Counted from the stretch's first letter, positions 4,787-37,851 are shown. The stretch: 64,000 bases of DNA from Candidatus Palauibacter irciniicola (GCA_009836005.1 VXWG01000010.1:1879-65878), one strand, 5' to 3'. Numbers and translations: made by a program. Notes: a model not told the origin generated them from the sequence alone.

Positions 4787-4809
4787 CCATCAAGATAGAG
4801 AGAAAAGCC

Positions 4810-19481: not shown

Positions 19482-22088
19482 TCAGCGGGCCGGCGTCAGA
19501 CGAACGGTCGCCGGGACGCGGCCTTCTCCCTCGGCGAACTCGACCTCGATGACGCCAGCGCCCCGATCCGAGACGAGGGCGGCGCCCTGCATGACCGTCG
19601 ACACCACCGGGGTGCCGAACGACGCGATCCGGTAGGTGTGGCCGGCCGTCCCTTCCAGGGAGAGACGCCACGCATCCGCCTCGGCGTCGAAGTCCAGAAT
19701 CCGCAGGCCGGTGCTCGTCCGGCCGGGCTCGAGGTCGACGCGGGGCGGGGCGACCGCGAGCCCGCCTTCCCACGCCACGACGATCTCCGCCCGGTTCCCC
19801 GCCGGCGCCGCATCCCCGACGGTCACTTCGAGGATTCCGTCGGGCGACAACTCCGCGGTGGCCCCGTTCACCCGGAACGTCACGTTGTGCGCCCCCGCCG
19901 GCACGTCGGGCACGAACTCGAAGGTCAGAGGCGGTCCGGAGGTCGTAAGCGTCGTGCGCCGCCCTCCGCCGCCCGCCGTCCACCGTTGCAGGATTTCGAC
20001 GTCGGTCGTCGTCCCCCCGGCCCGGAGCCGCCTCACCGCCGCCTGCGGCCAATCCGGCGGGAGTTGCGGGGCGAGCCGGGCCCTGCCGAGGGGAGCATCG
20101 GGTTCCCAGCCGATGACGCCGCGCAGTAACGGTGTCACCAACGCCGAGGTCGCGAAGAACTGGTGGGGGACGGTCTGGTCGAGGGGCTGGTAGAAGGTGC
20201 CGGAGAGCAGCTCCGGATGGCGCCCCAGGCTCCAGTCGAAGGTCATCTGCTTCACCGCGTTCACGAGGTGGAAGCCCGCCCATGGACGCCGGTACCGGTA
20301 CTGGGCCCACGACACGTATCCCGTCACGAAGGGCCACACCGTGCCCATGTTGTACTGGAGCGGGTGATACAGTTCGCTCTCCGTCGAGAGCATGTGGGCG
20401 CCCCAGTCCGACGAGATTCGGTCGCCCGCGAGCCGGACGAGGGTCGATCGCGCGCGCGCCCCGTCGAACAGGCCGAACGCGGCCGCCGTGGCGGGCCACA
20501 CGGTCAGGTTGTCGTTGGTGCCGCCGTCGGCGAGGATCCCGAACGCATGGTGCCCCGCCTCCTCGAGCCAGTACGCATCGTTCAGGCTCGCCCGCGCGCG
20601 GGGAGCCATCTCCCGCGCCCGATCCGCGATCTCGGCATCGCCCATGCGCTCCGCCAGCGCCGTGGTCCCCTCGAGGGCCGCGGTCCAGACCCCCGCCAGG
20701 TAGACATCCTGGTGGAGCGCCGCCCCGAGGCCGCCGACCTCGACCGCCGCGAGCCCGCCCACCGTGTTCTCGATGAGCCCGTCGCCGTCCGTCTCGGCGC
20801 TGAGGCACCATTCCCACGCGCGCCGGTAGGCGGGCCACAGCTCCCGCAGGAGTTCGTCGTCCCCGCTGGCCCGCCAGTACTCGTAGAGCGCGACCATCCA
20901 GTACGGGGTCGTGTCGGCGTGGTAGTACGTGTACGGATACACGTCGAACCACGGGATGCGCGCGGCCGCCTGGGAGATCTCGTGCGTGATCTTGCCGTCT
21001 TCGCGCTGGTATCCCGCGAGAAAGGCGAGTTCCTCCGCCACCAGTTCCCACTGCCCGAGCGCATCCATGGCGAAGCTCGTCTGCGCCGCGTCGCCGCCGA
21101 AGAACCAGCCGAAGCCGGGACGCGTCCCGTTGCGCGACAGGCCCCAGCCCGCGACGAACCCGCACCCGAGGTCGGGATTGCAGACGCGCTGCTCCTCCAG
21201 GTTGATCTTCGCCCACTCCAGGGCGAGATCGAGCCGTGGCTCCGGCGACTCGATGGAGACGGTGGAGGCGAGCACCGAGTCGGCCCAGGCCCGCTTGGCG
21301 CCGTACAGCGAGCGCGCCTCGGCGATCAGCCGATCGTAGCCGGCGAAAACCTCCTCGCGGGGCGCGGTTCCGCCCGTTACCGCGATCGGGATGAACTCCC
21401 GTCGCGCGCGTTCCGGGTCGACCGGGATCACCATGGTGCGCGGCGCCTCGCCCAGTTGATGAGCCGGGTGCTCCACGGAGTTCACGGCCCACGGCGACCC
21501 GACGACGGCGTTCGTCTCCTGCAGGCTCTCGGACAGCACGAAGGCGCGCCGGTCCGCGTCCCAGTAGGCGTACTGCCCCCCGAGCGACCCCGGCCACATG
21601 TAGTTCAGCACGGGCTCGAACTCGGCGACGATCTCGAGCGGTTCCGGGCTGTCCACCTCGAGCAGGACCAGGAGGCCGGGGAGCTCGGCGGGCGCAAGGA
21701 TGTGCTGGCGCACCTGGAAGGCCGCGTGGCTGTAGGCGATCGTCGTGAGTTCGGGCCGCACGTGCACCGTGCGCGCGACGGCGCTACCCGGAATCGGCGC
21801 TCCGTAGGCCGGGGTCGAGAAGCCGAGCCGGAACCGGTTTCCGACCTTGAGGGGGTGGATCCACAACTCCGCCTCTCCGGTCTCCAGGCCGAGCCACGCC
21901 GAGCGGGGTCCGGTCACGCCCAGGTATTCGCCGGGACGGACGGGGCCGGTGAGTTCGATCGGCGACGCTGCGATCTCGAAGCGCGGAACCCCGGCCGCCG
22001 TCTGGCCGGAACCGTTCGCCGGCAGGCCGGCGGTCATCGCGGCCAGGAGCATGAGAAGCGAGATGCGCGACGCGGGATCCAGAGTCAT
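19482..22088 (-). CDS. Exported (alpha/alpha)6-barrel glycoside hydrolase (glycogen-debranching/amylo-alpha-1,6-glucosidase-like)
   Basis: Signal peptide. GWFFGGDA, YQREDGKITHEI, YYHADTTP, DGDGLIEN, YNMGTVWPF, PELLSG and HQFF motifs. Confidence 0.75.
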   Translation of the reverse strand: MTLDPASRISLLMLLAAMTAGLPANGSGQTAAGVPRFEIAASPIELTGPVRPGEYLGVTGPRSAWLGLETGEAELWIHPLKVGNRFRLGFSTPAYGAPIPGSAVARTVHVRPELTTIAYSHAAFQVRQHILAPAELPGLLVLLEVDSPEPLEIVAEFEPVLNYMWPGSLGGQYAYWDADRRAFVLSESLQETNAVVGSPWAVNSVEHPAHQLGEAPRTMVIPVDPERARREFIPIAVTGGTAPREEVFAGYDRLIAEARSLYGAKRAWADSVLASTVSIESPEPRLDLALEWAKINLEEQRVCNPDLGCGFVAGWGLSRNGTRPGFGWFFGGDAAQTSFAMDALGQWELVAEELAFLAGYQREDGKITHEISQAAARIPWFDVYPYTYYHADTTPYWMVALYEYWRASGDDELLRELWPAYRRAWEWCLSAETDGDGLIENTVGGLAAVEVGGLGAALHQDVYLAGVWTAALEGTTALAERMGDAEIADRAREMAPRARASLNDAYWLEEAGHHAFGILADGGTNDNLTVWPATAAAFGLFDGARARSTLVRLAGDRISSDWGAHMLSTESELYHPLQYNMGTVWPFVTGYVSWAQYRYRRPWAGFHLVNAVKQMTFDWSLGRHPELLSGTFYQPLDQTVPHQFFATSALVTPLLRGVIGWEPDAPLGRARLAPQLPPDWPQAAVRRLRAGGTTTDVEILQRWTAGGGGRRTTLTTSGPPLTFEFVPDVPAGAHNVTFRVNGATAELSPDGILEVTVGDAAPAGNRAEIVVAWEGGLAVAPPRVDLEPGRTSTGLRILDFDAEADAWRLSLEGTAGHTYRIASFGTPVVSTVMQGAALVSDRGAGVIEVEFAEGEGRVPATVRLTPAR

Positions 22089-22143
22089 CGCCCGTATTCC
22101 TCACTTTCGCGAAATCCGTTGCGGCGGGCCGCCACCACTCTAG

Positions 22144-22180
22144 TTGACGCACCGGCGGGACCGAAACCAAGTTCGCCCGC
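22144..22180 (+). promoter_or_regulatory. Putative sigma70 promoter for a leaderless Rieske gene
   Basis: TTGACG-18 nt-CAAGTT-7 nt-ATG(22181). No SD. Confidence 0.4.
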
Positions 22181-23224
22181 ATGGCTACGTACAGCGATGA
22201 GCTGCCGCCGTTTCCCGAAGGCTGGTATTTCATCGGACACCGCAAGTCGATCGAGCGCGCGAAGCTCATCGAAAAGACGTGGATGGGCGAGGAAATCGTC
22301 GCGTGGGCCGACGAAGAGGGCCGCATCTGCGTGGCGGACGCCTTCTGTCCCCACCTGGGTTCGCACATGGGACCGACGACCGGCGGCCTGGTGCGCGACG
22401 GCTGTCTCGTCTGTCCCTTCCACGGGTTCGAGTTCGATGCGACCGGCCAGTGCGTGGCGACGCCCAATGCCCCGCCCCCGAAGGCCGCGAGGTTGAAGCT
22501 CTACGAGACCCGGGAGATCCTCGGCATGATCTTCGCATGGTGGGGGAGCGGCGGCCGGGCGCCTCAGTGGCACCTGCCGGATGAACCTCCCACCGGCGCG
22601 GACTGGACCGGATTGCGCTCCACGATCCTCCGGTTCCGGGGCCACCCCCAGGAAACGACGGAAAACTCCGTCGACGTGGAACACCTGGAGTACACGCACG
22701 GATACCACGACGTGAAGCCGACCGACTTCTCGGTCGACGGCGCCTACCTGAAGAGCTGCTTCGACTTCAAGGCGGTTCGCCGGATCCTGGGTCTGGTGGA
22801 CATTCATTCCGAAGTCTCGGTCATCACGCACGTCCACGGAGTCGGCTATTCCTTCGTCGAGATTTACGAGAAACTGGTCGGCATAAAGTCGCGCATGTGG
22901 GTGCTCACAACGCCCGTCGACGGCGAATTCGTGGAGTTGACGATGGTGAATCAGGTGCGGGAGGTCCGTAAGCCGGGGCGGTTCATCTCGGGCCTGGGCT
23001 TCCTGCCCGTGCCGCTGCGCCACCGGCTGCTGAATGTCTTCATCCTGCGCGAGGAGAGGCGGTTCGTCCTGCAGGACATCGTGATATGGGACAGGAAGCG
23101 CTACCGGTCTCCCCCCCGGCTGTGCCGGACGGACGGCCCCATCGGGAAATACCGCCGACACTGCCGACAGTTCTATCCGGACCCGGCGATGGCGCCTCGA
23201 AGCCCGGACCGCAACGCCGACTAG
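22181..23224 (+). CDS. Rieske non-heme iron oxygenase/desaturase, Neverland/DAF-36/KshA-like (sterol-acting family)
   Basis: FPEGWY, Rieske CPHLG...CPFHG, mononuclear Fe motif ENSVDVEHLEYTH, and C-terminal QDIVIWDRKRY-x2-PP-x-L-x3-DGPIGKYRR-x3-QFY shared by cholesterol 7-desaturases and 3-ketosteroid 9alpha-hydroxylases. Confidence 0.85.
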   Translation: MATYSDELPPFPEGWYFIGHRKSIERAKLIEKTWMGEEIVAWADEEGRICVADAFCPHLGSHMGPTTGGLVRDGCLVCPFHGFEFDATGQCVATPNAPPPKAARLKLYETREILGMIFAWWGSGGRAPQWHLPDEPPTGADWTGLRSTILRFRGHPQETTENSVDVEHLEYTHGYHDVKPTDFSVDGAYLKSCFDFKAVRRILGLVDIHSEVSVITHVHGVGYSFVEIYEKLVGIKSRMWVLTTPVDGEFVELTMVNQVREVRKPGRFISGLGFLPVPLRHRLLNVFILREERRFVLQDIVIWDRKRYRSPPRLCRTDGPIGKYRRHCRQFYPDPAMAPRSPDRNAD

Positions 23225-24274
23225 CTAGCAGCCCGTGGACTGCCAGGGTTTGCGCGCCAGGAAACAGTACAGGGGCGTGAAGATGCCCGTCTTGCCGCCC
23301 GCGACGTAAGCCTCCGCGGTTCGGTCGAGGAGTCGAACCACCTCCGCCGAGCCTTTCGGAAAGAGCCGCAGCAACTCGGCCAGCTTCGACCCCGCGATGA
23401 ACGCCTTGCGGCCCCAGGGAAGCCTGCGCACCGCGGTCCCCAACGTCCCGTGGCGGCTCTCCATGGGTTGATACCAGGGCGTGGAAGGTCCTTCCCGGAC
23501 GTCCCAGTCGCTCCCCTCGATGACCTGGAATCCCGCCCCTTCGAGAGCGCGATTCACTTCCCCGAACGTGGCGATGTCGTGCAGCGCGATACCCCGCATG
23601 AGGTCCCGCTTGATGGTCCGGTGCCGGCGGTCCCGCGGGTCGAACCGGTCCGTCAGGCACATTTCCTGACCCCAGAACAGGGCGCCCGGCTTCAGTACGC
23701 GGAATATCTCCGCGAACGCGCCTTGCTTGTCCTGCGCATGGCACGTCGACTCTATGGCGTAACCCCCGTCGAACGAGTCGCCCTCGATGGCGCTCATGTC
23801 CTCGAAGCTGCACTTCCTGAAATCGGTCAGGTGCTCCAGCCCCGCCTCGGCGTTCAACTTCTTCGCCTCCGCCAGCTGGATCTCGTTGATGTTGATTCCC
23901 ACGGCCCTGACACCCGCCTCACGGACGACTCGGCGCATGGGGCCGCCGACTCCGCAACCGACATCGACCACCTTCATGCCCCGTTTCAGCTCCAACTTCG
24001 AGATCATCGCCCGCTGGTGCCGGACCTTGGACTCCTCCAGGCTCTCCTGGGGCGTGAGGGGCGCGAAATGCAGGGATTCACCCCAGCCGTACACCATGAA
24101 GCCGTTGCACAGCTCGTAGTAGTCCCTGACCGTTTCCGTATGGTCGTAGGCGCCCGCGCCCTCAGCCTCCGGTGCCGCCCGGTAAAGCCAGCCGTCGAAG
24201 TGCCGGACTCGACGCGCGACGCCCGATCCCGGGTGCGCATCTCTCAGCGCTTTCGACAGTTTGCGCAGTCGCAT
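23225..24274 (-). CDS. Sterol C-24 methyltransferase (SMT/Erg6-like)
   Basis: YYEL...YGWGESLHFA (region I), VDVGCGVGGPMR (SAM), YAIESTCHA (region III), EIFRVLKPG, and C-terminal GGKTGIFTPLYCFLARKP. ATG 24274 is 11 nt from the P450 stop. Confidence 0.88.
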   Translation of the reverse strand: MRLRKLSKALRDAHPGSGVARRVRHFDGWLYRAAPEAEGAGAYDHTETVRDYYELCNGFMVYGWGESLHFAPLTPQESLEESKVRHQRAMISKLELKRGMKVVDVGCGVGGPMRRVVREAGVRAVGININEIQLAEAKKLNAEAGLEHLTDFRKCSFEDMSAIEGDSFDGGYAIESTCHAQDKQGAFAEIFRVLKPGALFWGQEMCLTDRFDPRDRRHRTIKRDLMRGIALHDIATFGEVNRALEGAGFQVIEGSDWDVREGPSTPWYQPMESRHGTLGTAVRRLPWGRKAFIAGSKLAELLRLFPKGSAEVVRLLDRTAEAYVAGGKTGIFTPLYCFLARKPWQSTGC

Positions 24275-24285
24275 TTTGGGGGGGC

Positions 24286-26313
24286 TCAGGCGGGCAGCTC
24301 CCGCCTCTGCTCGGTGATGCGGAATCTTACCTTCTTGCTCGGCTTCAGCGACGGAACCGGATTGAAGCGGAGCTTCCGTGCGTACTTCGCCGGCGTCACC
24401 TCGACCGTGAAGTAGTGCGCCAGCATGAGCAGGTTGACCGCCAGGTGCATCTCCATCCAGCGGGTGCCGAGACATTTGTGCGTACCCAGCCCGTACGGGG
24501 CGAACCCGAGGCTGCGATGCTCACGACGCGACGGCAGGAAGCGGTCGATGTCGAACTTGTAGGGTTCGGGAAAGACATCGCTCATGTAGTGCGTGGCGGT
24601 CATGGCGATGTGGATCCGTTCCCCCAGGGGCAGCTCGTAGTTCCCGACCGTGCAGGTATTCATCACGTTCCGAACGGACATGGACACGATCGGGTACATG
24701 CGCATGCACTCCATGAGGAAGCGGTGCGTCACGTCGATGTTGGCGGGGGTGAAGTCCTCGCTCCCGGGGTCGCCGTTGGCAAACAGGGCATCCGCTTCGG
24801 CGCGGATTTTTTCGTAGAGGTCCGGCTGCGACGCCATGGAGTAGACCACGAGGCTGAACGTATCGCCGAGGTACACACTGGCGATCAGGGCCGCGGAAAA
24901 GGCGAAGAGCAGGTTGGACTCCGGGAGGAACCCCGGGTCGCTGGCGTGCAGGCTGAGGTAGTCGTCCACCAGGTTCCGCGGGCTGTCGACGCGCTGGGCG
25001 GGAGTATGGACGCTCAGGATCCGTTTCATCAGCGTGTCCAGGACTGCCGCCCGACGTCTCATGCCCGGGGTACGTAGCGTGAACTCGGGCAGGACCTTCG
25101 CGATGTGCACGCTCAGGGCCCGCTCCTTGTAGCCCATCAGGTCGCCCATGAGATCCTGCGTGTCGACGCCGATGAACAGCGGCGACAACTGGGCGTTCAC
25201 CATTGCCCGGCTCATGGACGTGGCGCGGTAGGAATCCCCGACCGTCAGGGTCGACATGTACGCGCGCCCCCTGCTGTATAGCTCGTCCATCTGCCCTGCC
25301 AGCCTCGTGCGGGAATAGGCCGGCGACAGGAATTTGCGAAGCCGGAAGTGGTCGGCTCCATCCAGGGCGGGCAGAACGCCGGCCGCGCCGTAGACTTTCT
25401 CGAAGTCGGCGAAGTAATCCCTGGTTCGCAGGTACATGCGCCCGCGCTTCTGCATCCACTCGTTCGTCTCGAGTCCGGCCAGGAAGATCATGCGCTTCGA
25501 GAAGGGAGGACGGATCTGGAACACCGGGCCGTACTCCTCCGCGAGGTTCGCGAAGAGCGCGTTCAGGTTGCCGTCCCGGACATGCGGGTTGCGCAGCAGC
25601 CTGGTCAGCGAAACCGTCGGAATTTTCTTCGCGAGAGCCGTGTGTCTGCGGATCGGGCCGACGAGGTTCTCGGAGACCGCGGCGGCGATGGAACGGCCGA
25701 TCAAGTCCAGCTGGCAGATGAACTTGATGCGCTCTTCCGCCGCTTCATCGAGTTCGAAGATCAGGCGAAAGACGTCGCAGGTGTTGACGAGGCACACGAT
25801 GACGACGTCTCTCGGTTCGGGAACCTCGTCGGCGAAGACGACGTTGCCGATGCGCGCCTTGATGAACTGGTCGGTCGCGCCTTCCTCGAACATCCCGTAC
25901 TGCTGCCGATGCATGACGGGAGGAGCCAACGTCCAGAATTCGCCTTCGTGGTGTTGGAGGATCCCCCGTTCAACCAGGCGGTCCAGGGTCAGGTCGACGA
26001 TCGACTCCGCGCGGGGGGCGAGCCGTTCGACCCAGTACCGGGCAGTGTGTTGGACCGGTTCGTCCGCAATCTCCTTCAGAATGGGATCCAGAACGGGGTC
26101 GCCCGTTTCGGCCCGGTCCACCACGTACAGGGATGTCAGATCCGAGTCGAGCCGCGACTGGAAGGAGAGTTCCGCCAGCACTCCGCCGACGACAGCGCAG
26201 TTCAGCTGCCAGCCGGGTACCTGATGGAAGTAGCCTCCCTTCTCGTCGAGAAGCATCAGGATGAGTTCGTCGACGAGGCTCAGGGATTCGACCTTCAGAC
26301 TCTCCACCGTCAT
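24286..26313 (-). CDS. GOLPH3/VPS74 (GPP34)-domain and cytochrome P450 fusion protein
   Basis: N-terminal ~215 aa LSLVDELILMLLDE...GGVLAEL...DPVLD...LVERGIL resembles GPP34. C-terminal P450 has ECMR (ExxR), FDIDRF and heme motif PYGLGTHKCLG. Start ATG 26313. Confidence 0.85.
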   Translation of the reverse strand: MTVESLKVESLSLVDELILMLLDEKGGYFHQVPGWQLNCAVVGGVLAELSFQSRLDSDLTSLYVVDRAETGDPVLDPILKEIADEPVQHTARYWVERLAPRAESIVDLTLDRLVERGILQHHEGEFWTLAPPVMHRQQYGMFEEGATDQFIKARIGNVVFADEVPEPRDVVIVCLVNTCDVFRLIFELDEAAEERIKFICQLDLIGRSIAAAVSENLVGPIRRHTALAKKIPTVSLTRLLRNPHVRDGNLNALFANLAEEYGPVFQIRPPFSKRMIFLAGLETNEWMQKRGRMYLRTRDYFADFEKVYGAAGVLPALDGADHFRLRKFLSPAYSRTRLAGQMDELYSRGRAYMSTLTVGDSYRATSMSRAMVNAQLSPLFIGVDTQDLMGDLMGYKERALSVHIAKVLPEFTLRTPGMRRRAAVLDTLMKRILSVHTPAQRVDSPRNLVDDYLSLHASDPGFLPESNLLFAFSAALIASVYLGDTFSLVVYSMASQPDLYEKIRAEADALFANGDPGSEDFTPANIDVTHRFLMECMRMYPIVSMSVRNVMNTCTVGNYELPLGERIHIAMTATHYMSDVFPEPYKFDIDRFLPSRREHRSLGFAPYGLGTHKCLGTRWMEMHLAVNLLMLAHYFTVEVTPAKYARKLRFNPVPSLKPSKKVRFRITEQRRELPA

Positions 26314-26347
26314 TTGTCGGTTCTCGCCTCGCCGCAGTCGACGTGCA

Positions 26348-29300
26348 CTACGCGGCGCCCGGAATCGAGGCACGCCGCGACGGCATCAAGCGCATATGTA
26401 ACGTGCATAGCGCCGGAACCACCATCATAAGTATGACCGTGATGAAGAGAATGCCGCAACCGAGTGACGCGGCAAACGGTATCAGGAATTGGGCCTGGAT
26501 GGCGCGCTCCAGGATCAGGGGCGTGAAGCCGAGGAACGTGGTCAGGGAAGTGAGCATGATCGGACGAAAACGCCCCTTTGCCCCCTCCATGATCGCGGTT
26601 CGCGGCGGGGCGCCTTCCCGGAGTTTCTGATCGATGAAGTCGATCATGACCAGGGAATCGTTCACCACGACCCCGCTCAGACCGAAGATCCCCATGAAGG
26701 ATACGGCGCTCAGGGCGACTCCCAGGATCCAGTGGCCCAGGATCACGCCGATGAACCCGAAGGGGATGACGGCCATGATGATGAACGGCTTGGTATATGA
26801 ACGGAGGGGGATGGCGAGGAGCGCAAAAATCAGGATCAGAGCGACCGCGAAGCCGCGGTAGAGCGCGTCGATGGACTCCAGCTGCTGCTGCTGCTCGCCC
26901 CCGAACGTGTATGTCAGGCCCGGGTACGCCGCGGTCAGGTCCGCGAGGATCGAGTTTTCCAGAATATCGTTGGCTTCGTCGCCGGAGATCACCGAGGCGT
27001 CCACATCGGCGGTGACGGTGACGACGCGCTGGCCATCCCTGCGCCGGAGGGCCGACGGCGACACGCCCGGGCTCAGCGAGGCCACACTGATGATCGGCAC
27101 CTCGTCCCCGCCCGGCGTACGGAGCAGGTAGCCTTCGATATCGGTGATCGAGTTCCGCTCTTCCGCGGGCAGCCGAACATAGACTCGTACCTCTTCGCGG
27201 CCGCGCTGCACCCGGACGGCTTCCGCGCCGAAGAACGCGCCCCTCGCCTGTCCGGCCAGCTCCTGCACGGTGAGACCGAGGGTCCGCGCTTCGGGCCGCA
27301 ACTCGAGCTGAACTTCCGGGATGCCCGGGGCGTGATCCGACCGTATGTCGTAGACGCCGCTCACGCTGCGGAGTCCGTCGACCACCGAGCTGGCGATCCC
27401 GGCGAGGCGCTCCGGGTCCGGATGGGACAGTACGGCCTCGACCGGGTTCCCAAGGGTGAAGATCTCGCCGCTGAAGGTGATGCCGCGCACGTAGGGCAGC
27501 ACACCCACCTCCTCTCGCCACGCCTGCACGACGTCGCCGGTGGAGATCCGTCTCTGCTGCGCACTGAGGAGCTTGAACTCGATGGTGGCGATATTGGCCT
27601 GCGGATTGACGGTGGGCTGCGGGTTGAGTCCGCCTTCGAGTCTCGATCCCAGTCCGACCGTCACCGTGACGCCGGTCAGCAGCGGCGGCGCGTCCCCGGG
27701 CCGGCTGAGAGAGAGTCGTTCGATGACCCGGTGGCCCGCGGCCTCCAGCTCCCGCGCCACTTCGTACGTTCTCGGAGCGGTCGTCCCGTCGGGCATCTCC
27801 AGCACGACCGTCACGATGTCCCCCTCCACGTCGTCGGCCAGCGTGGTGGGGACGATTCCCGCGGGCACCAGGGAGATGCTCAGCACGAGCATTCCAACGG
27901 CCCCCGTCATCGTCACGCCGGGCCGGGCCGTGGCAAACCGCAGGGCCCGGTCCAGGGGCCCCTGCACGAACCGCTGCAGCTGGGCGTCGACACGACTCTG
28001 TAGTCGCGAGAAGAACCGGTCGAAGGCATTGCCCGGCACCCAGTCCGGACCGGGCAGGTGGGACAGGTGGTTGGGCAGGACGAACAGCGATTCCACCAGC
28101 GAAACCATCAGCATGGCGATCATGATGATCGGCAGGGCCCGCCATACGTCACCGACGCCGCCCGGGATGAACAGCAACGGGACGAACGCCACCGCCGAAG
28201 TGAGGACCGCGAACGTCAACGGTACCTTGATCCGCCGGACGCCGCGGATCGCGGCCGCGACCCCTGGGGTTCCGCGACTGCGTTCGTATTGGATGTGCTC
28301 GGCCACGACGATGGCGTCGTCCACGACGATCCCTATGGCGAGCACGAAGGAGAAGAGGCTGATGGTGTTGATCGCCACGTCGAACGCCATCATGACGGCG
28401 AGGGCGCCTATGCCGGAGACGGCGAGGCCCACGGCAACCCACAGGGCAAGCCGAATCTGGAGAAACAGGCTGAGTGCGACCAACACCAGCAACAGACCCA
28501 GAATCCCGTTCTTCAGAAGAAGATCGGCGCGTTCCTCGTAGGCCTGGGATTCGTCGTTCCACAAGGTGATGCCCACGCCGTCCGGCAAAGACGGGATCAC
28601 CTCGTTCGCCAGGTGCTCGCGGACGGTCGTGGCCACATCCATCACCTGCTCGCCGCCGGCCCGATACACCTCGACGAATACGGCGGGCCGGTTCTGATGG
28701 CGGACCATCAGGTCTGCCTCCTGGAACCCGTCGCGGACCTCGGCGATGTCGCCGAGGCGCACGACCGTGCCGTCGCGGCCGCTGAGAAGGACGATCTCCT
28801 CGAAGTCCTGCTGGTCGTAGTTCTGCCCGAGGGTCCGCACTCGAACCTGGGATTCCCGGGTATCGATGCTGCCGGCCGACAAGTCGAGCGAACTGCGGCG
28901 GATCGCGGCGGCAACGTCGGTAAGTGTGAGCCCCAGGGCTCTCAGCCGGTGAAGCGGCACCTCGATGGAGATCTCGTAGTTCCGGACCCCGCTGACCTCG
29001 ACCTGGGAGACGGAGGGCAGCGTGGTAAGGTCGTCCTCGATCCGGTGCGCCAGTTCCTTCAGCGAGCGCTCGGAGACGTCGCCGTGGACGATGAGCCGCA
29101 TCATGCTGAAGCGGTTGTCCATCTCCTGGAAACGGGGACGTTCGGCACCGGCCGGGAAGGACTGGATACGATTGACGGCGGATTCTATGTCGTCCAAAGC
29201 CCGATCCATGTCCGTACCGGAATCCATCTGGATCCGCACGGAGGCGATGCCCGGAGCCGCCAGGGACTTGACCGCCTGCACGTCATCGAGCCCGCTGACC

Positions 29301-29554
29301 TGGTCCTCGATCTTGACGACGATCGACTCCTCGATCTCCTCCGGCGTGGCGCCGGGATACGCCATCGAGACTTCGATGTGGTAGAAGGGGGTTATGGGCC
29401 ACGCTTCCCGCTCGAGGCCGGTCAGGGACACGAGTCCGGCCGCAACGATGCCCATCATCAGGAGATTGGCCGCGATGCCGTTGCTGGCCATGTAGGCGAG
29501 CGGGCCGGACCGCTCGCGGCGGTCGCCCGGTTCGCGACCCGCGTCGGGATTCAT
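26348..29554 (-). CDS. RND efflux permease (AcrB/AcrD/AcrF family)
   Basis: YPGATPEEIEE, IGIVVDDAIVVAE, GVVVNDSLV, RFRPIMLTSLTT. 1068 aa. Confidence 0.95.
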   Translation of the reverse strand: MNPDAGREPGDRRERSGPLAYMASNGIAANLLMMGIVAAGLVSLTGLEREAWPITPFYHIEVSMAYPGATPEEIEESIVVKIEDQVSGLDDVQAVKSLAAPGIASVRIQMDSGTDMDRALDDIESAVNRIQSFPAGAERPRFQEMDNRFSMMRLIVHGDVSERSLKELAHRIEDDLTTLPSVSQVEVSGVRNYEISIEVPLHRLRALGLTLTDVAAAIRRSSLDLSAGSIDTRESQVRVRTLGQNYDQQDFEEIVLLSGRDGTVVRLGDIAEVRDGFQEADLMVRHQNRPAVFVEVYRAGGEQVMDVATTVREHLANEVIPSLPDGVGITLWNDESQAYEERADLLLKNGILGLLLVLVALSLFLQIRLALWVAVGLAVSGIGALAVMMAFDVAINTISLFSFVLAIGIVVDDAIVVAEHIQYERSRGTPGVAAAIRGVRRIKVPLTFAVLTSAVAFVPLLFIPGGVGDVWRALPIIMIAMLMVSLVESLFVLPNHLSHLPGPDWVPGNAFDRFFSRLQSRVDAQLQRFVQGPLDRALRFATARPGVTMTGAVGMLVLSISLVPAGIVPTTLADDVEGDIVTVVLEMPDGTTAPRTYEVARELEAAGHRVIERLSLSRPGDAPPLLTGVTVTVGLGSRLEGGLNPQPTVNPQANIATIEFKLLSAQQRRISTGDVVQAWREEVGVLPYVRGITFSGEIFTLGNPVEAVLSHPDPERLAGIASSVVDGLRSVSGVYDIRSDHAPGIPEVQLELRPEARTLGLTVQELAGQARGAFFGAEAVRVQRGREEVRVYVRLPAEERNSITDIEGYLLRTPGGDEVPIISVASLSPGVSPSALRRRDGQRVVTVTADVDASVISGDEANDILENSILADLTAAYPGLTYTFGGEQQQQLESIDALYRGFAVALILIFALLAIPLRSYTKPFIIMAVIPFGFIGVILGHWILGVALSAVSFMGIFGLSGVVVNDSLVMIDFIDQKLREGAPPRTAIMEGAKGRFRPIMLTSLTTFLGFTPLILERAIQAQFLIPFAASLGCGILFITVILMMVVPALCTLHMRLMPSRRASIPGAA

Positions 29555-30771
29555 CGCACCGGGTCGGTCTGGACGCGCATCCCTTCGGTGGCGAACTGAA
29601 GTCCACCGGTGATCACTGCCTGGCCGCCCCGCAGGGCGCCGGTGACGAACACCGCATCGTTGGCGCGTTGCAGCACCTGAACCGGAACGATGCTCACGAC
29701 GCCGTCGCGGTCCACCGTCCAGGTTTCGTTGCCGGGTTGCAGCGCCGCTCGCGGGATCCGGAAGTAGTCCTCCGGTGAGAGTCCCTCGATCTCCACCTCA
29801 ACGAACTTGCCGACCAGCAACGGAGGATCGCCCCCGACGGCAGCGGACCGGCCCGCCGGCGCGCTTGCGTCGAACGGATCCGGCACGCGCACGATCACAT
29901 CGATGGTGCGTGTCTGCGCGTCAACGGAACTCTCCCCCCGATCCACGTAGCCCTCCCAGGCGTACATCACCTCCCCGTAGTGGGCGATCACACGAGCCGC
30001 GACGTCCCGTGCCCCGTCGCCCGCCTCGAGCTCCCACAATCCCGGGACCAGGGCGGCGTCGGCATCGGAGAGGGGCACGACGACCTCCACCGCCTCCGAC
30101 GCGAAGAGGCGTCCGACGGGCTGCCCGGGGTTCACGACCTGCCCCGCATCGACCGATTCCTCGCGCACGAAGCCGTCGAACGGTGCGGTGACCCGGGTCC
30201 TGGAGAGCGCAAGCTTCGCCTCCTCAAGCCGGGCTTCGTCGCGGCTCAGCGCGGCGCTGGCCGCTTCCAGTTGAGGCTCCCTCAGCGTGAGCGGACTCGC
30301 CTCCGAAGGCGGGGGGCCCGTCTCGCGCCGCTCCGAGTACAGTTCATACTGGGCGCTGGCGATCGCTGCCCGTTCCTGTTCCTCGAGGAAGGCGACGCGG
30401 CTTGCCGCAACGTTCGCTTCCGCTACCTGAACGCGGTACGCGTAATCGGCTTCTTCGATGCGGAAGAGCGTCTGGCCCGACTCCACGCGCCCTCCACTCT
30501 GGAACCGCGGACTCACCCAGACGACCTTGCCGCCCACCTGCGGCGCGACATCGATCTCCTCGCTTGGCCGCACGGTCCCGGATCCGAACACGGGAATCGC
30601 GCCCGACCCGGCCACAACACTGGCGGTTTGCGCAAACGGGATCTGGGGAGGCGGTTCCCGGCTCTCCGGCTCGGGGGCCAGCGAGAGCATGAGTGCCGCG
30701 ACCGTAATCGTACCGACGATGATCACGGCGATGATCCTGAGACTGGATCCGAACAGCAATCTGCGCAGCAT
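29551..30771 (-). CDS. RND periplasmic adaptor (membrane fusion protein)
   Basis: N-terminal TM, PQVGGKV, LSRTRVTAPFDG, VDAQTRT, IPRAAL. Overlaps the permease start. Confidence 0.92.
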   Translation of the reverse strand: MLRRLLFGSSLRIIAVIIVGTITVAALMLSLAPEPESREPPPQIPFAQTASVVAGSGAIPVFGSGTVRPSEEIDVAPQVGGKVVWVSPRFQSGGRVESGQTLFRIEEADYAYRVQVAEANVAASRVAFLEEQERAAIASAQYELYSERRETGPPPSEASPLTLREPQLEAASAALSRDEARLEEAKLALSRTRVTAPFDGFVREESVDAGQVVNPGQPVGRLFASEAVEVVVPLSDADAALVPGLWELEAGDGARDVAARVIAHYGEVMYAWEGYVDRGESSVDAQTRTIDVIVRVPDPFDASAPAGRSAAVGGDPPLLVGKFVEVEIEGLSPEDYFRIPRAALQPGNETWTVDRDGVVSIVPVQVLQRANDAVFVTGALRGGQAVITGGLQFATEGMRVQTDPVR

Positions 30772-30829
30772 TGTGCCTTATCCCATGGAGGTGGAGGAGC
30801 ACCAGCTTGAGCATAGGAATCTACGGTTT

Positions 30830-30850
30830 GTTCGGTCAACGGGACCGAAC
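30830..30850. other. Perfect 8-bp hairpin at the right edge of the sterol island
   Basis: GTTCGGTC-AACGG-GACCGAAC, immediately after the stop of the M8-like protease. Terminator or operator. Confidence 0.45.
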
Positions 30851-32080
30851 CTACCGCGGCGAACGGTCGCGGAGCACGCGCACGACGCGGCCTTCCGCAT
30901 CGACGACCTGCACCGGACCCCTGAGGACATCGTCGCCCAGGTCGACCGCGCGGCCGGGTTTCTCGTCCGCGGCCCCGACGCCGGGGAGCGTGTACGGCTC
31001 CGCCAGACTCGCGTCGACCCTGTAACCCAGGTCGGCCAGCGACCGGATCGTGATCGCGCTGAGGGTCTCGCGGGATCCGATCCTGTTGAGCGGCCTCATG
31101 AGTTCCCCGCGGAGGACGGAGCCCCGCCAATGGAGGTTCGCACTCCCGACCCCGCCGAAGTTCTCGACCGGGACCTTCGCCCCGCCCGTGTAGTCCGTGC
31201 CGCCCGCCGCGTCGAAGGCGGCGATGGCCTCGGGACCGACGAAATGCGCGTCGATCGCTCCCACGCCGAGGGCGGGATCCCGGAGGAGATCGAGAGGGCG
31301 CCACAGCAGGCCGAATCCGAGCGCGTGCGCGATCTCGTGGACGGCGAGTTCCGTCGCGTCGCCGGAGTCGATGAGGCCATCGAAGTCCGACACGTCGAAG
31401 AACGCCACGCTCGCGACGGGCAGCATCGACCCTTCGCGCAGGCGGCACACGCCGGCCTGGGCGAGCGTGCGGCCCGGCCCGTCGATGTCCCGGAATTCGA
31501 TGAGGATCATCAGGTCATCGATGGTGCCGACCGGCTCCGCCGTGTTCGCGCCGTAACACTCGATGCGGTCGTCGACCGCAACCTCCGGCAGGTCCGTATC
31601 GGCCAGCACCGACATCCAGAGTTCCGCCGCCGCGAGGACCACGGCCCGCCACGGCTCGGTCGCCGTGGTGTCGAAGCGGACGTCGATGTCGAACCTGTTC
31701 GGCACGGTGACCTCGAACCTGAGGGCGGCGGCCCGGCCTTCGGGATCGCGCGCCGTGATCGCCACCGTCGACGTCCCCTGCGCCAGGGCGACGACGCGGA
31801 CCGTGCTCCCCGAGACTTCGGCGCCCGCAACTTCCGCCGCGGACGACCTCACCTCGAAAGAGAGGACATCCCCGTCGGGATCCCGGAAGTAGCCGGACGC
31901 TTCCAGCGTCGCCGTGTCCCCGACCACCAGTTCGAAGTCGGCGACGGTACCGATGACCATCGGCGGCCGCGTCAGAGGAGGGTCCGTGCTCCCGTCCCCG
32001 CAGGCCGCAGCCGAGGCGGCGACGAGCAGCGCGCAACCCCGGAAGCGGAGCTTTCGCGCGATCCGCCCCGCTCCGAGCAC
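30851..32080 (-). CDS. Leishmanolysin-like (M8) zinc metalloprotease lipoprotein with Ig-like domain
   Basis: AAAC lipobox, F-x-DPDGD Ig-like repeat, DGPGRTLAQAG, HEIAHALGFG (HExxH), HW-x5-GELM Met-turn. Confidence 0.8.
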   Translation of the reverse strand: MLGAGRIARKLRFRGCALLVAASAAACGDGSTDPPLTRPPMVIGTVADFELVVGDTATLEASGYFRDPDGDVLSFEVRSSAAEVAGAEVSGSTVRVVALAQGTSTVAITARDPEGRAAALRFEVTVPNRFDIDVRFDTTATEPWRAVVLAAAELWMSVLADTDLPEVAVDDRIECYGANTAEPVGTIDDLMILIEFRDIDGPGRTLAQAGVCRLREGSMLPVASVAFFDVSDFDGLIDSGDATELAVHEIAHALGFGLLWRPLDLLRDPALGVGAIDAHFVGPEAIAAFDAAGGTDYTGGAKVPVENFGGVGSANLHWRGSVLRGELMRPLNRIGSRETLSAITIRSLADLGYRVDASLAEPYTLPGVGAADEKPGRAVDLGDDVLRGPVQVVDAEGRVVRVLRDRSPR

Positions 32081-34970: not shown

Positions 34971-35091
34971 GCGTCCAATCTACGTGCGGCCCGCGAACCG
35001 GGCATGAGCCGCGGCCGAGTGCCGACGAGCTCGATCGTGCGGCGTGCTCACGGGGGCGTGACCCCCCTCCGAACATCGGCTAGTGTGCTTC

Positions 35092-36492
35092 ATGATGCTC
35101 CGCCACCGCGTGTCGCCAGCCGTGGGGTTGTCGGCGCTGACGTCGCTCCTGGCCTGCAACCCCGGCGCCGAGCCGTCCGACGCCCGGGCCACTCTGGCCA
35201 TCGAGCGGGTCTCGGTCATCCCGATGGACGGCGAGCGCGTGCTCACCGGCGTGACGGTGCTCATCGGCGACGGCCGCGTGCTTGCCGTGCAGCCGTCGGC
35301 CGAAGCGGAGGTCCCCGACGGCGCCGTGCGGGTCGACGGCCGCGGCCGCTTCCTCATCCCGGGCCTCAACGACATGCACGTCCACTTCGGCGAGGAGTCG
35401 GCGCTCGGGCGGTTCCTGGCCACCGGAGTCACCGGCGTGCGCATCCTGTCGGGCGGGCCACACACGCTCGCCCTTCGCGACCGCGTCCGGAGCGGCGAAC
35501 GGGCCGGCCCGGACATCCACACGGCGGGGCCCATCATCGAGGGGTTGCCGCCGCCGGAATTCGCCGCCGTCATCGACACCGCGGGACGCGCGATGGTCCG
35601 CGACAGCCTTGACGGCGACCGCACCGTGCGGGAGCAGCATGCCGCCGGGTACGACTTCATCAAGGTGTACAACAACGTGCCCGCGGCGGCCTACCGGGGC
35701 ATCGTCGCCGAGGCGCGCCGCCTCGGGATCCGGGTGGCGGGGCACGTGCCCTTCGAGGTGGGCCTCGATGGCGTCCTCGCGGCGGGCCAGGCCAGCATCG
35801 AACACCTGCGCGGGTACATCTGGCACCTCGTGCCCGAGGAGGCGCCGGCCCAGCCCGGCCCCGACCTGCGATCGCGCACGCTCGCCTGGGCGTACGGAGA
35901 CCCCTCGCGGATCGAGGCGCTCGCCGAGCGGACCCGCGAGGCCGGGTCGTGGAACGTGCCGACGCTCTCGGTCCGCATGATCCACAAGCCGGACCGCCTT
36001 CTCGATGCCTACCTTGCCACGGAGGAGGCGTCGCACATGACCGCCGCCATGCGCCGCTTCTACACCGAGCGCATGTCGATCCCGTGGATGAGCAACTTCA
36101 CGCCGGACGACTTCGAAGCCGCGCTGGATGGTTTCGGGGTGGCGGATTCCCTGATCCGCGCCCTCGTGGCCGCCGGCGCTCCCGTGATGGCCGGTACGGA
36201 CACGCCGCCCCTCGGCTTCGCCCTCCACCGCGAACTGGAGGAACTCGTCGCCGCGGGTCTGTCACCGTACGAGTCGCTGCGGAGCGCCACGGTCAACCCG
36301 GCCCGCTTCCTCGGACGGGAGGAGGGCGCCGGCATGGTGGTCGAGGGGAGCCCGGCCGACCTCGTGCTGCTGGAGGGCAATCCGCTGGAAGCGATCGGCA
36401 ACACGCGCCGCATCGCCGGCGTCGCGAGGCGCGGCGAATGGCTGGACCGCGCGACACTGGACGCCATGCTGCGGGAGGCCGCGGACCGCTGA
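35092..36492 (+). CDS. Amidohydrolase family lipoprotein
   Basis: LLAC lipobox, PGLNDMHVH, DFIKVY, AGHVP, SIEH, AGTD, ATVNPA, ADLVLLEGNPL. Confidence 0.88.
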   Translation: MMLRHRVSPAVGLSALTSLLACNPGAEPSDARATLAIERVSVIPMDGERVLTGVTVLIGDGRVLAVQPSAEAEVPDGAVRVDGRGRFLIPGLNDMHVHFGEESALGRFLATGVTGVRILSGGPHTLALRDRVRSGERAGPDIHTAGPIIEGLPPPEFAAVIDTAGRAMVRDSLDGDRTVREQHAAGYDFIKVYNNVPAAAYRGIVAEARRLGIRVAGHVPFEVGLDGVLAAGQASIEHLRGYIWHLVPEEAPAQPGPDLRSRTLAWAYGDPSRIEALAERTREAGSWNVPTLSVRMIHKPDRLLDAYLATEEASHMTAAMRRFYTERMSIPWMSNFTPDDFEAALDGFGVADSLIRALVAAGAPVMAGTDTPPLGFALHRELEELVAAGLSPYESLRSATVNPARFLGREEGAGMVVEGSPADLVLLEGNPLEAIGNTRRIAGVARRGEWLDRATLDAMLREAADR

Positions 36493-36603
36493 ACGCACTT
36501 GCAGCGCGGCGCGGCGATCGGTGAGGTTGGCCGTGAGATCCGGGTGCGCCGCCGGCTGCGGCGAGACCCCGTTGGACCGGATCCGGGCCATCGCAACGAG
36601 GAA

Positions 36604-37851
36604 TTGAACATCCGCTACCGCACGCTTCCGGCGCTCTGCGCCCTTCTCTTGCTGCCGCAACCCGCCGCCGGGCAGGAAGCCGTACGCAGGGTCTCGCTCG
36701 CGGCGGCCCTCGAGGCGTTTGCGGACAACAGCCTCGCGCTGAAGATCGCGCGCTCCGAGGCCGCCGAGATCGCGGGATCGGCGCGCCAGTCCCGTGCCTG
36801 GTTCAACCCGTCGCTCTCGGCCAGGCGCGACGATCTCGACCGCAATGGCGACGAGTACTGGGAGGAGAATCTCCTCCTCTTTCAGCCCCTGGAGTGGCCG
36901 GGCCGAACCGCGGCCCGCTACCGGGCGGCCGCCCACACGATCGAAGCGAGCACCGCCCGTTTCCGCGGCGACTCGACCCGGTTCGCCTTCGAGGTTCGCG
37001 AGGCCTGGGCGCTCGCGTGGTTTGCGGAAGCGGCGGAACGCACGGCGCGGCAGGCCGCCGCCGTGATCCGGGAAGTGGCCGAGGACGCGGAGATCCGCCT
37101 GGAGGAGGGGGACATCTCCGCCTACGAAACGAGGCGGTTGCGACTGGAACGGGTGCGGGCCGAGCAGGGTGTGGCGGAGGCCGAACTCCGGGCCCGCGAC
37201 GCGCGCCGGCGCCTCGCCGCGCTGACCTTTCCCGGGACGGGAATCGAGGAGGTCGGACCGTCCGCGGGGCTGGAAGGGCTGCCGCCCCCGGTGACTCGGG
37301 ACGACGCGCTCGGCGCGATGGTCGAGCGGCCGGACCTGGAGGCCGCGGCGCGGGATCTGGACGCCGCGCAAGCCGAACTCGCCGTGGCGAGGTCCCGCTG
37401 GATGCCCGATCCGACCGTCAGCCTCGGATATCGACGGCAGGAGGGCGGATTCGAGGGACTCAGCCTGGGTCTCGATCTCCCGTTGCCGCTGTTCGACCGG
37501 GGAGGGGGAACCCGGCAGGCAGCCGACGCGAGGAGCGCGGCGGCCGCCCATCGCCTCGACCTCCGGAGACGGCTGGCGGAGAACGATCTCCTGACGACCT
37601 CGGACCGGTACGCCTCCAGTCGCGCCCGTCTCGAAGCCGCGGCCGATGGCCTGTCGGCGGATGCCGAGGCGTTGCTGGCCTCCGCGACGGCGGCCTACGG
37701 CGAGAACGAAATGTCGCTCCTGGAGTTGCTCGACGCGGCGAACGCGTTCCGGGGCGCCCGGATCAGCGCCCTGTCCATGCGATCCACGGCATGGATCGCC
37801 TACTGGGATCTCCTGCGCGCGATGGGACGGGCCCCGGAACGGGAGCCGTGA
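36604..37851 (+). CDS. TolC/CzcC family outer membrane efflux protein
   Basis: Signal peptide, NPSL, RPDL, LPLPLFDRG and YGENEMSLLELLDA. Start uncertain (TTG 36604; ORF-track start 36499). Confidence 0.82.
   Translation: MNIRYRTLPALCALLLLPQPAAGQEAVRRVSLAAALEAFADNSLALKIARSEAAEIAGSARQSRAWFNPSLSARRDDLDRNGDEYWEENLLLFQPLEWPGRTAARYRAAAHTIEASTARFRGDSTRFAFEVREAWALAWFAEAAERTARQAAAVIREVAEDAEIRLEEGDISAYETRRLRLERVRAEQGVAEAELRARDARRRLAALTFPGTGIEEVGPSAGLEGLPPPVTRDDALGAMVERPDLEAAARDLDAAQAELAVARSRWMPDPTVSLGYRRQEGGFEGLSLGLDLPLPLFDRGGGTRQAADARSAAAAHRLDLRRRLAENDLLTTSDRYASSRARLEAAADGLSADAEALLASATAAYGENEMSLLELLDAANAFRGARISALSMRSTAWIAYWDLLRAMGRAPEREP

Follow-up and report, generated by a model that had tools for sequence, protein, structure and literature searches.

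A mobile gene island of sponge-associated bacteria that probably modifies and transports sterols

Within a 64,000-nucleotide stretch of DNA from Candidatus Palauibacter irciniicola (GCA_009836005.1, VXWG01000010.1:1879-65878), referred to below as the window, five neighbouring genes at positions 22181-30771 encode a KshA-like Rieske oxygenase, an enzyme of the sterol methyltransferase (SMT) type, a fusion of a GPP34 domain with a cytochrome P450, and a resistance-nodulation-division (RND) pump with its membrane-fusion protein (MFP). We conclude that this block is a mobile accessory island of sponge-associated bacteria, and that it probably serves to alter sterols and to carry them through the cell envelope. 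Its genes stay linked in distant carriers, have passed between phyla under purifying selection and have decayed in close relatives. The genome of the window contains no cyclase for sterol synthesis, and in some other genomes the island genes adjoin true sterol clusters.

Gene content and conservation of the island

Open reading frames (ORFs) were called with a crude longest-ORF procedure and a GC3 filter, which yielded 49 ORFs in the window. Together with Pfam and NCBIfam searches, these calls confirmed the five genes and the domains that an initial annotation of the DNA had named in this block (Table 1), and the start codons are backed by tblastn alignments beginning at residue 1-2 in relatives. 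The gene spacing described there agrees with the coordinates as well. The MFP and RND genes share 4 nt (29551-29554), gaps of 34 and 11 nt separate the RND gene from the P450 gene and the P450 gene from the SMT-like gene, respectively, and the stops of the SMT-like and Rieske genes abut in convergent orientation with zero gap. The block had also been thought more AT-rich than its surroundings, and this is borne out by the base composition. Measured in 1-kb bins, the GC content is 0.618-0.696 between 22001 and 30000 (seven of the eight bins at or below 0.664), compared with 0.70-0.745 in the adjoining bins, which corresponds to approximately 65% for the island and 70% for the flanks and the window.

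Table 1. Genes of the island and the promoter-like match upstream of it
Feature	Position	Strand	Basis
Rieske non-haem-iron oxygenase, KshA-like, 347 aa	22181..23224	+	Pfam Rieske 62.1 bits and KshA_C 76.8 bits
SMT-like S-adenosylmethionine (SAM) methyltransferase, 349 aa	23225..24274	-	Pfam Methyltransf_11 60.9 bits and Sterol_MT_C 59.1 bits
GPP34 (GOLPH3-like)-cytochrome P450 fusion, 675 aa	24286..26313	-	Pfam GPP34 102.6 bits and p450 116.9 bits, one frame
HAE1-type RND inner-membrane transporter, 1068 aa	26348..29554	-	ACR_tran 532 bits, full length
Periplasmic membrane-fusion adaptor (MFP, HlyD-type), 406 aa	29551..30771	-	TIGR01730 154.9 bits, cut-off 94.9
Weak sigma-70-like promoter match, TTGACC-18-TATGCT, 9/12	30810..30839	-	79-nt gap upstream of adaptor gene

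A scan of one genome per species returned 557 relatives of the SMT-like protein. The best 80 loci, all in other genomes and with 72-93% identity, were analysed further, and all 49 window ORFs were compared with them by tblastn. Wide recurrence was limited to the five island genes: the SMT-like gene was present in 80/80 loci, the GPP34-P450 fusion in 75 (in 58 of these at an identity of at least 60%), the Rieske gene in 70, the RND gene in 42 and the MFP gene in 19. The RND proteins share 69-99% identity with that of the window, with values of 90-92% in metagenome-assembled genomes (MAGs) of Acidobacteria. In contrast, the immediate flanks were matched in close relatives only, the GH116-like gene in 8 and the leishmanolysin-like gene in 5 of the 80 loci. 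Therefore, the edges of the island coincide with the coordinates at which it was first drawn. The search for conserved synteny that the initial annotation had proposed thus reveals linkage kept far beyond chance, and the block is a discrete conserved island. Gene order varies by lineage; the Acidobacteria loci, for instance, show the order RND-SMT-P450 with the Rieske gene a few kb off.

The island is accompanied by a variable set of partner genes. An FAD oxidoreductase of the amine-oxidase family occurs in 39-40 of the 80 loci with approximately 80% identity, an outer-membrane factor (OEP) gene lies upstream of the adaptor gene in 13 other loci, and nine loci contain a second, canonical SMT. 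Ten loci, all of them without the HAE1 pump, possess an MMPL-type transporter with a sterol-sensing domain, in most cases alongside TPR and outer-membrane barrel genes. In addition, the 477-aa cluster representative P0062 combines SMT domains with KshA_C, either as a real fusion or as a gene-calling artefact.

The window belongs to a Gemmatimonadota MAG (G000) of 3.6 Mb in 114 contigs, with 98.4% completeness and 0.9% contamination. On another contig (C86:89275-90630), this genome encodes an island-type FAD oxidoreductase with 82% identity as a lone gene in a low-GC patch (0.63-0.65 versus approximately 0.69). One TGA was reported inside the matched frame of this gene. A third contig encodes an ERG4/ERG24-family reductase (C51:78743-79792, 120 bits), and this family was found in 0/14 control genomes. 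The reductase gene (locus L093:7744-9066, minus strand) adjoins a flavin reductase gene and lies near an AbiEii toxin gene, at a local GC content of 0.59-0.65; it is 81% identical to a gene of L008 and approximately 32% identical to ERG24 of de novo clusters. Hence the five genes form a cluster as first described, whereas the module is not limited to the window, with the FAD oxidoreductase and the ERG4/ERG24-like reductase encoded elsewhere in the genome.

Transfer between phyla and decay within the genus

According to the locus titles, the MAGs carrying the island belong to 11 groups, namely Gemmatimonadota, Acidobacteriota, Rhodothermales, Latescibacterota, Chloroflexota, Nitrospirota, Nitrospinota, Actinomycetes, Opitutales, Binatia and Gammaproteobacteria. 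Many of the loci lie on 2-6 Mb contigs titled as chromosomes, and the spread over phyla is therefore not a binning artefact. The SMT tree, which was obtained by a quick search and has star-like parts that call for caution, displays very short branches, and its labels are arranged mostly by phylum (14 changes versus a minimum of 10). A seven-member Acidobacteriota clade is nested within the Gemmatimonadota clade of the window, with a Shimodaira-Hasegawa-like approximate likelihood ratio test (SH-aLRT) support of 95-97, and rows of Rhodothermales and Bryobacterales are nested in another Gemmatimonadota subclade. Three short contigs titled Gemmatimonadota (L025, L029 and L031) carry SMTs that fall inside the Latescibacterota clade, which may be due to a further transfer or to an error in binning or labelling.

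Over its N-terminal 663 residues, the RpoB of G000 shares 41-62% identity with that of five carrier genomes, whereas the SMTs of the same five genomes share 76-88% identity and the RND proteins of the four having the pump 82-90%. The synonymous divergence (dS) from the Acidobacteria locus L009 amounts to 0.27 for the SMT and 0.24 for the RND gene, and increases to approximately 0.55 for Latescibacterota and 0.76-0.83 for Opitutales, values that are still unsaturated. Such dS values combined with the divergent RpoB are incompatible with vertical descent. Therefore, the island has moved between phyla, and fairly recently. The GC dip across the island is a further sign of this transfer, and the RND paralogues of the genome itself are just 48-50% identical to the island pump. 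The dN/dS ratios of the island genes range from 0.08 to 0.32, and the island is thus under purifying selection.

Within the order of the window, SMT homologues (E <=1e-30) were detected in 18/144 species genomes, all in the window's own genus, and in 0/110 genomes of the other 31 genera. An island-type SMT (at least 83% identity) is present in 13 of these 18 genomes, that of the window included. Four genomes of the same genus without the SMT gene have kept the flanking synteny and contain remnants at the same spot. In L096, a 660-bp scar holds pieces of the Rieske gene (residues 215-300), the SMT gene (three pieces) and the RND gene (residues 1-71), while L098 possesses a broken RND gene (residues 10-535), L099 RND residues 13-71 plus a truncated adaptor, and L097 the adaptor only, in intact form. 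These remnants indicate that the island was present in the ancestor of the genus and decayed in several species, as expected of a trait that is useful in some niches only. Insertion into an empty site within the genus was considered and rejected because of the gene remnants at these sites, and loss fits better than independent gain.

Part of the island was also found in 20 public runs from 9 studies. Eleven of these runs, from 6 studies, are labelled sponge metagenome, and near-identical island DNA occurs in runs with this label; the remaining island-bearing runs have coded organism names or none. The habitat record suggested in the initial annotation thus indicates a host-associated life. The contrast in read depth between the island and its flanks is confounded by homologous islands of other symbionts.

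Link of the island to sterol metabolism

The Sterol_MT_C and KshA_C domains point to sterol metabolism, and the physical linkage to sterol clusters does so more strongly. In 8/80 loci (L036, L037, L042, L044, L047, L048, L057 and L070; seven Nitrospirales and one unclassified), the SMT gene adjoins SdmB, SdmA, ERG24, CYP51 and/or a fusion of squalene epoxidase (SE) and oxidosqualene cyclase (OSC). In a Gammaproteobacteria MAG, the core cluster is situated on another contig (L092) and includes an island-type FAD oxidoreductase with 78% identity. Here, SE and OSC are fused in one frame of approximately 1120 aa (L092:5563-8922, minus strand) with the domains SE, FAD_binding_3, SQHop_cyclase_N and SQHop_cyclase_C. 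The same fusion is found in L036, L037, L044 and L048, with 74-76% identity between the Gammaproteobacteria MAG and the Nitrospirales MAGs. Judged by the available text of Kelly et al. 2022 (PMC9531527), the core cluster near the island genes is evidently their 'cluster of steroid genes' (CSG).

The SMT-like gene is the sole Sterol_MT_C gene in G000. Its product has the domain order of SMT/ERG6 proteins, Methyltransf_11 followed by Sterol_MT_C (cut-off of the latter 21.7 bits), and retains the SAM-binding Region II, which reads DVGCGVGGP in the window and follows the pattern DxGxGxxGP in 70/81 clade rows. Region I reads FMVYGWGESLHF in the window, with Leu for F89 and Met at position 81. This change is clade-wide (consensus FMV(W/Y/F)GWGESLHF), and some members also alter G84 or G86, whereas canonical paralogues in four loci show (Y/F)E(Y/F)GWGxSFHF. 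The canonical SMT paralogue of the de novo clusters is approximately 40% identical to the island SMT. Owing to the altered Region I, one defining feature fails and the protein was classed as SMT-like. In the available part of a recent study (10.64898/2025.12.19.695621), GWGxxFHF is reported to belong to a set of 25 residues that all functional SMTs tested share, G84 was kept in all SMTs tested, and 7/11 SMTs inactive on desmosterol or 24-methylenecholesterol deviate at such conserved residues. It follows that the C-24 methyltransferase of the initial annotation stands with respect to its SMT domains and Region II, but not as a canonical C-24 SMT, as its Region I is without some of the residues that all tested functional SMTs share. 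The SMT-like enzyme may direct alkylation to another position or to another sterol. A PDB sequence search with this protein retrieved no informative solved SMT.

The RND protein has approximately 13 hydrophobic segments and the adaptor one N-terminal hydrophobic anchor, and both resemble typical exporters. From the tripartite HAE1 set, the permease and the adaptor are encoded by the overlapping genes, whereas no OEP gene was found within the island and one lies 5.7 kb off (36499-37851). Around this OEP gene (35083-37851), the window differs from two island-less relatives: in L096 and L097, the OEP homologue is inverted and adjoins a molybdopterin oxidoreductase homologue, and the amidohydrolase gene (35083-36492) is missing at that site. 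The lineage of the window may thus have undergone a local rearrangement or an insertion. Classification of the RND protein as HpnN-like was rejected, since HpnN models gave 22-25 bits against cut-offs of 752-1100. Since the pump is replaced by a sterol-sensing-domain transporter in 10 loci, moving a lipid is likely part of the function.

The same features invite a different explanation, the handling of xenobiotics or non-sterol lipids, in which a hydrophobic compound of the sponge environment other than a sterol would be altered by the oxygenases and the methyltransferase and expelled by the efflux pump. Host or microbial terpenoids, squalene-like or polyprenyl chains, and membrane-active defence metabolites are the candidates. 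This explanation accommodates the departure of Region I from the functional-SMT consensus, the layout of oxidation, methylation and efflux, which resembles detoxification, and the HAE1 RND pump as a member of the classic multidrug class. The genome also contains one SQS_PSY gene and therefore makes some C30 or C40 isoprenoid, and SMT-like enzymes of Botryococcus methylate squalene and botryococcene. We nevertheless regard it as rather unlikely. Sterol_MT_C scores well above its cut-off, the island genes are contiguous with SE-OSC, CYP51, ERG24 and SdmAB in 8 loci, and the associated FAD oxidoreductase is also found in a de novo sterol cluster. Furthermore, the substitute transporter of the pump-less loci bears a sterol-sensing domain, and the ERG4/ERG24-family reductase of the genome has no counterpart among the control genomes. 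Combined, these observations favour sterols as the compounds on which the island acts.

The GPP34-P450 fusion and the Rieske oxygenase

The GPP34 domain, the only one in G000, comprises residues 13-214 of the fusion and precedes a P450 with the haem-ligand motif FAPYGLGTHKCLG. An AlphaFold2 model of the fusion (pLDDT 72, pTM 0.74) contains two folded parts. The best PDB sequence matches of the P450 are to Methylococcus CYP51 (70 bits), and a Foldseek search of the model against the PDB returned generic P450s only (CYP184A1, Methylococcus CYP51 and BM3) with the GPP34 part swamped, from which no substrate inference was drawn. Identification of the P450 as CYP51 was rejected on account of this 70-bit score and an identity of 20-27% to symbiont CYP51.

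The translation of the Rieske gene displays the CPH..CPFH cluster ligands and the D-x2-H-x4-H iron motif, and its top PDB matches are the KshA chains 4qdc and 2zyl (E 8e-22 to 7e-20). Pfam and PDB therefore uphold the KshA half of the initial Neverland/KshA-like label, but no result assigns the protein to Neverland. In the ESM Atlas, generic Rieske/KshA_C and amine-oxidase clusters were found, and a 'cholesterol 7-desaturase family' cluster first appeared at rank 21, a lead rather than evidence for Neverland. The protein was also rejected as SdmA, with a score of 36.9 bits for NF052579 (cut-off 600) and 22-28% identity to its SdmA-like counterpart in L092, a protein with a VanA_C instead of a KshA_C domain. 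A signal-peptide-like N-terminus was not found in any of the three enzymes (SMT-like, GPP34-P450 and Rieske).

From its architecture, we read GPP34 as a putative membrane- or lipid-targeting module for the P450. This would fit the GPP34-Rieske and GPP34-ABC-ATPase fusions reported as rare in the available text of PMC11706023, the former of which tie GPP34 to both oxygenase types of the island. The same text describes GPP34 as enriched in sponge symbionts of at least 16 phyla, and counts 656 GPP34-P450 proteins, which occur in sponge symbionts only, cover many phyla and are expressed in Aplysina aerophoba metatranscriptomes.

These data, together with the solid Pfam GPP34 match (103 bits), could be taken to mean that the fusion is a host-manipulation effector, which would be secreted, bind host phosphatidylinositol-4-phosphate (PI4P) and block phagosome maturation, with its neighbours being functionally separate. 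Such a role appears quite improbable to us, because the fusion gene is flanked on its own strand by the RND gene 34 nt upstream and the SMT-like gene 11 nt downstream, accompanies the SMT in 75/80 loci and encodes no recognisable signal-peptide-like N-terminus, and because a P450 requires haem and cytoplasmic redox partners. The similarity of the GPP34 domain to human GOLPH3 in a PDB sequence search (chain 3kn1, E 0.04) is too weak to map pocket residues. In this alignment, the position of GOLPH3 R90, which we take to be a PI4P-binding arginine, falls on a glycine, a hint only, as the weak alignment is uncertain by 1-2 residues. Moreover, the words 'sterol', 'methyltransferase', 'lipid' and 'RND' are absent from the main text of PMC11706023, and gene context was therefore not weighed in that part of the paper. 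The genes that share an operon with the fusion speak for sterol chemistry at the membrane rather than for a secreted effector.

Absence of a de novo sterol pathway

A Pfam scan of 35 window ORFs, with small ORFs left out, detected no squalene epoxidase, cyclase or steroid ring-degradation families, in agreement with the initial annotation. The search for cyclase and epoxidase genes in the whole genome, which it had recommended, gave the same outcome: profile searches of G000 found no SQHop_cyclase_N and no squalene epoxidase, the sole SQHop_cyclase_C match being weak (36 bits), and tblastn with SE-OSC, CYP51, SdmA and SdmB yielded no match in this 98.4% complete genome. Among the carriers, an OSC-type match (TIGR03463, 690-740 bits, open frames of 986-1522 aa) is present in 14/80, and the other TIGR03463 matches score 146-293 bits. 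The remaining 66 carriers are without OSC, several of them titled as complete chromosomes. Five strong SQHop_cyclase_C matches in island genomes were rejected as OSC, because the squalene-hopene cyclase model accepts them and the OSC model does not.

The tailoring set is thus far commoner than the cyclase core among the loci (80 versus 14 genomes). In addition, the canonical second SMT is located in OSC-bearing genomes in 8 of its 9 loci, whereas the island SMT is found in all 80. It is therefore the canonical SMT, and not the island SMT, that tracks the de novo route. Since G000 has no synthesis core, its sterol substrates would have to come from outside the cell. Read most simply, these findings mean that the genes for tailoring and transport are passed on separately from the core, and that in most hosts, the bacterium of the window among them, they act on sterols from the sponge or from sterol-making neighbours.

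Ordinary de novo biosynthesis, with the cyclase and core genes merely missing from an assembly in 114 contigs, is how the available texts of Brown et al. 2023 (PMC10070321) and Kelly et al. 2022 (PMC9531527) interpret symbiont SMT clusters, and SE-OSC fusions do occur in the 14 carriers, including L040 (titled Candidatus Palauibacter sp., Gemmatimonadota), but this is very improbable here given the completeness of the genome, a near-identical relative (G001, locus L003; 4.0-Mb record titled chromosome) that is also without cyclase, the 66 carriers in which no OSC was found, and a de novo route that goes with the canonical SMT.

Proposed function and implications

For an island that modifies and moves sterols, we propose the following mechanism. 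Substrates would be obtained from the sponge or from co-resident symbionts with an SE-OSC/CYP51/ERG24/SdmAB cluster. The host or dietary origin assumed initially would thus be right in placing the source outside the cell, and sterol-making symbionts may supply it as well. In the cytoplasm, the SMT-like enzyme would alkylate a side-chain double bond using SAM, at a position that the altered Region I leaves open. The lipid-binding GPP34 domain could hold the P450 at the membrane, where the P450 and the KshA-like Rieske enzyme would oxidise or desaturate the sterol, and the FAD oxidoreductase (contig C86) and ERG4/ERG24-like reductase (contig C51) might adjust double bonds. Finally, the RND pump and the adaptor would take the product out of the inner membrane and deliver it to the outer membrane or the host. 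Remodelling of exogenous sterols followed by export, as first suggested, remains the best reading; substrate, products and direction of transport are what we infer within it.

Several points weigh against sterol remodelling and export. The evidence is entirely computational. The SMT-like protein deviates in Region I from the sterol-binding GWGxxFHF motif with Tyr/Phe at positions 81 and 83, and the island SMT clade may not accept desmosterol or 24-methylenecholesterol. Neither the P450, for which Foldseek gave generic P450s, nor the Rieske protein is assignable to a reaction. No redox partners, outer-membrane channel or sterol uptake system are encoded within the island, and the pump type does not fix the cargo, because RND systems expel many kinds of hydrophobic molecule. 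In the 14/80 carriers with an OSC, the island would also fit de novo synthesis, and absence calls in MAGs hinge on completeness. Lastly, RNA evidence for this locus is limited to contigs of a single RNA-labelled run, X20. They extend over all 30 bins of 21000-32000, but contigs do not reveal transcription, strand or level and the library may contain DNA, so that they were not counted as expression.

A bolder proposal, which we consider speculative and rather unlikely, is that the island SMT catalyses a sponge-specific alkylation that canonical SMTs do not perform, for example at C-26 (aplysterol, 26-methylstigmastane-type), on sterols of the sponge or of co-symbionts. The pump would then return the products, and GPP34 would be a membrane or sterol-delivery module rather than an effector. 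The Discussion of PMC10070321 describes the C-26 methylation enzyme as unknown, and in the available text of PMC12541326 it is still open as of 2025 whether side-chain methyltransferases reside in the sponge, in bacteria or in both. No 26-SMT was reported in the available text of the papers from 2023 on that a search on this subject returned. If this proposal is true, part of the 'sponge' sterane biomarkers would trace back to bacterial genes that pass from one symbiont phylum to another. Unusual side-chain-alkylated steranes are in use as the oldest chemical evidence of animals, and the island bears on such sponge biomarkers.

The divergent methyltransferase of the island is a sponge-symbiont-specific, widespread and testable candidate. 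Since most carriers are unable to make sterols, the model shifts from de novo synthesis by symbionts to a division of labour in remodelling within the community or between host and symbiont. Should the enzymes act on other lipids, the island would still represent a symbiosis-linked trait common to 11 phyla and lost when unneeded.

Other features of the window

The promoter-like match upstream of the adaptor gene is suggestive by its position alone, with one site observed versus 1.0 expected by chance, and the promoter and terminator scan as a whole gave no more sites than shuffled sequence. The leishmanolysin-like gene (30851-32080, minus strand; Peptidase_M8, weak at 28 bits), which is the immediate upstream neighbour of the adaptor gene and is encoded on its strand, belongs to a family typical of eukaryotes and is kept at the same site in island-less relatives. 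A TMEM164-family protein (13976-14680, plus strand; 183 bits) occurs in 2/80 loci and in the close relatives L097-L099; we take this family to consist of eukaryotic membrane acyltransferases, in which case it would be unusual in a bacterium. A TonB-dependent receptor with a carboxypeptidase-regulatory domain (4783-7989, plus strand) coincides with a second low-GC stretch (0.625-0.675 at 5001-8000). It was matched in 0/80 loci and is unrelated to the island.

Comparison with known systems

KshA (4qdc, 2zyl) shares the Rieske and KshA_C domains with the island oxygenase and provides its best solved relatives, but identity is alignable only over the Rieske domain and a short C-terminal stretch. 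In addition, the context of the island is methylation and export, not catabolism; KshB reductase, KstD and Hsa genes were not found among the 35 window ORFs scanned, the rest of the genome not having been searched. The Bst system of Methylococcus capsulatus (the RND protein BstA with BstB and BstC) reportedly serves sterol transport. Both systems encode an RND-superfamily transporter together with sterol-modifying genes, presumably for outward movement of sterols. However, the island pump is of the HAE1 type with a membrane-fusion adaptor and not HpnN-like, and the MMPL/sterol-sensing-domain transporter of the 10 other loci is the closer analogue.

Functional bacterial SMTs, some of them clustered with sterol genes, have been reported from sponge metagenomes (PMC10070321). 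As far as the available texts show, the island SMT shares the Methyltransf_11 and Sterol_MT_C domains and Region II with these and other SMTs of sponge symbionts and uncultured bacteria (PMC10070321; 10.64898/2025.12.19.695621), and it is likewise sponge-associated and clustered with sterol-related genes. It differs in Region I, where the consensus FMV(W/Y/F)GWGESLHF faces (Y/F)E(Y/F)GWGxSFHF in canonical SMTs, and most island carriers are without OSC, in contrast to the de novo route proposed in those papers.

The available text of PMC9531527 describes CSGs (ERG24-CYP51-lanosterol synthase) in Ircinia symbionts of approximately 10 phyla, with horizontal transfer and purifying selection. An SMT often flanks CSGs, and the same cluster type (SdmB-SdmA-ERG24-CYP51-SE/OSC) adjoins the island genes in the 8 loci described above. 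In contrast, the island of the window contains 0/3 CSG core genes and corresponds to the tailoring and transport part without the core.

With the GPP34_L fusion family of PMC11706023, the island shares an identical GPP34-P450 architecture, the multi-phylum distribution and the association with sponges. That paper, in its available text, proposes a secreted PI4P-binding effector against phagocytosis, and its flanking-gene analysis concerns short GPP34 proteins of Actinobacteriota. In the island, on the other hand, the fusion is an operon member between the RND pump and the SMT-like gene, and is linked to the Rieske oxygenase and to sterol-synthesis clusters.

The initial annotation had regarded the combination of genes as undescribed. 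This holds for the linkage but not for the parts, since symbiont SMTs and clusters (PMC10070321, PMC9531527) and the GPP34-P450 fusion (PMC11706023) have been published. A GPP34-P450 sharing an operon with an SMT-like enzyme, a KshA-like oxygenase and a pump was not found in print, and neither were the lack of a cyclase, a tailoring set far commoner than the cyclase core, the divergent SMT subfamily or decayed copies in relatives, although supplements may show parts of these or an assay of a member of this SMT clade. The comparison suggests that three published threads, the SMTs of sponge microbiomes, the steroid gene clusters and the GPP34-P450 effector, are parts of one mobile unit.

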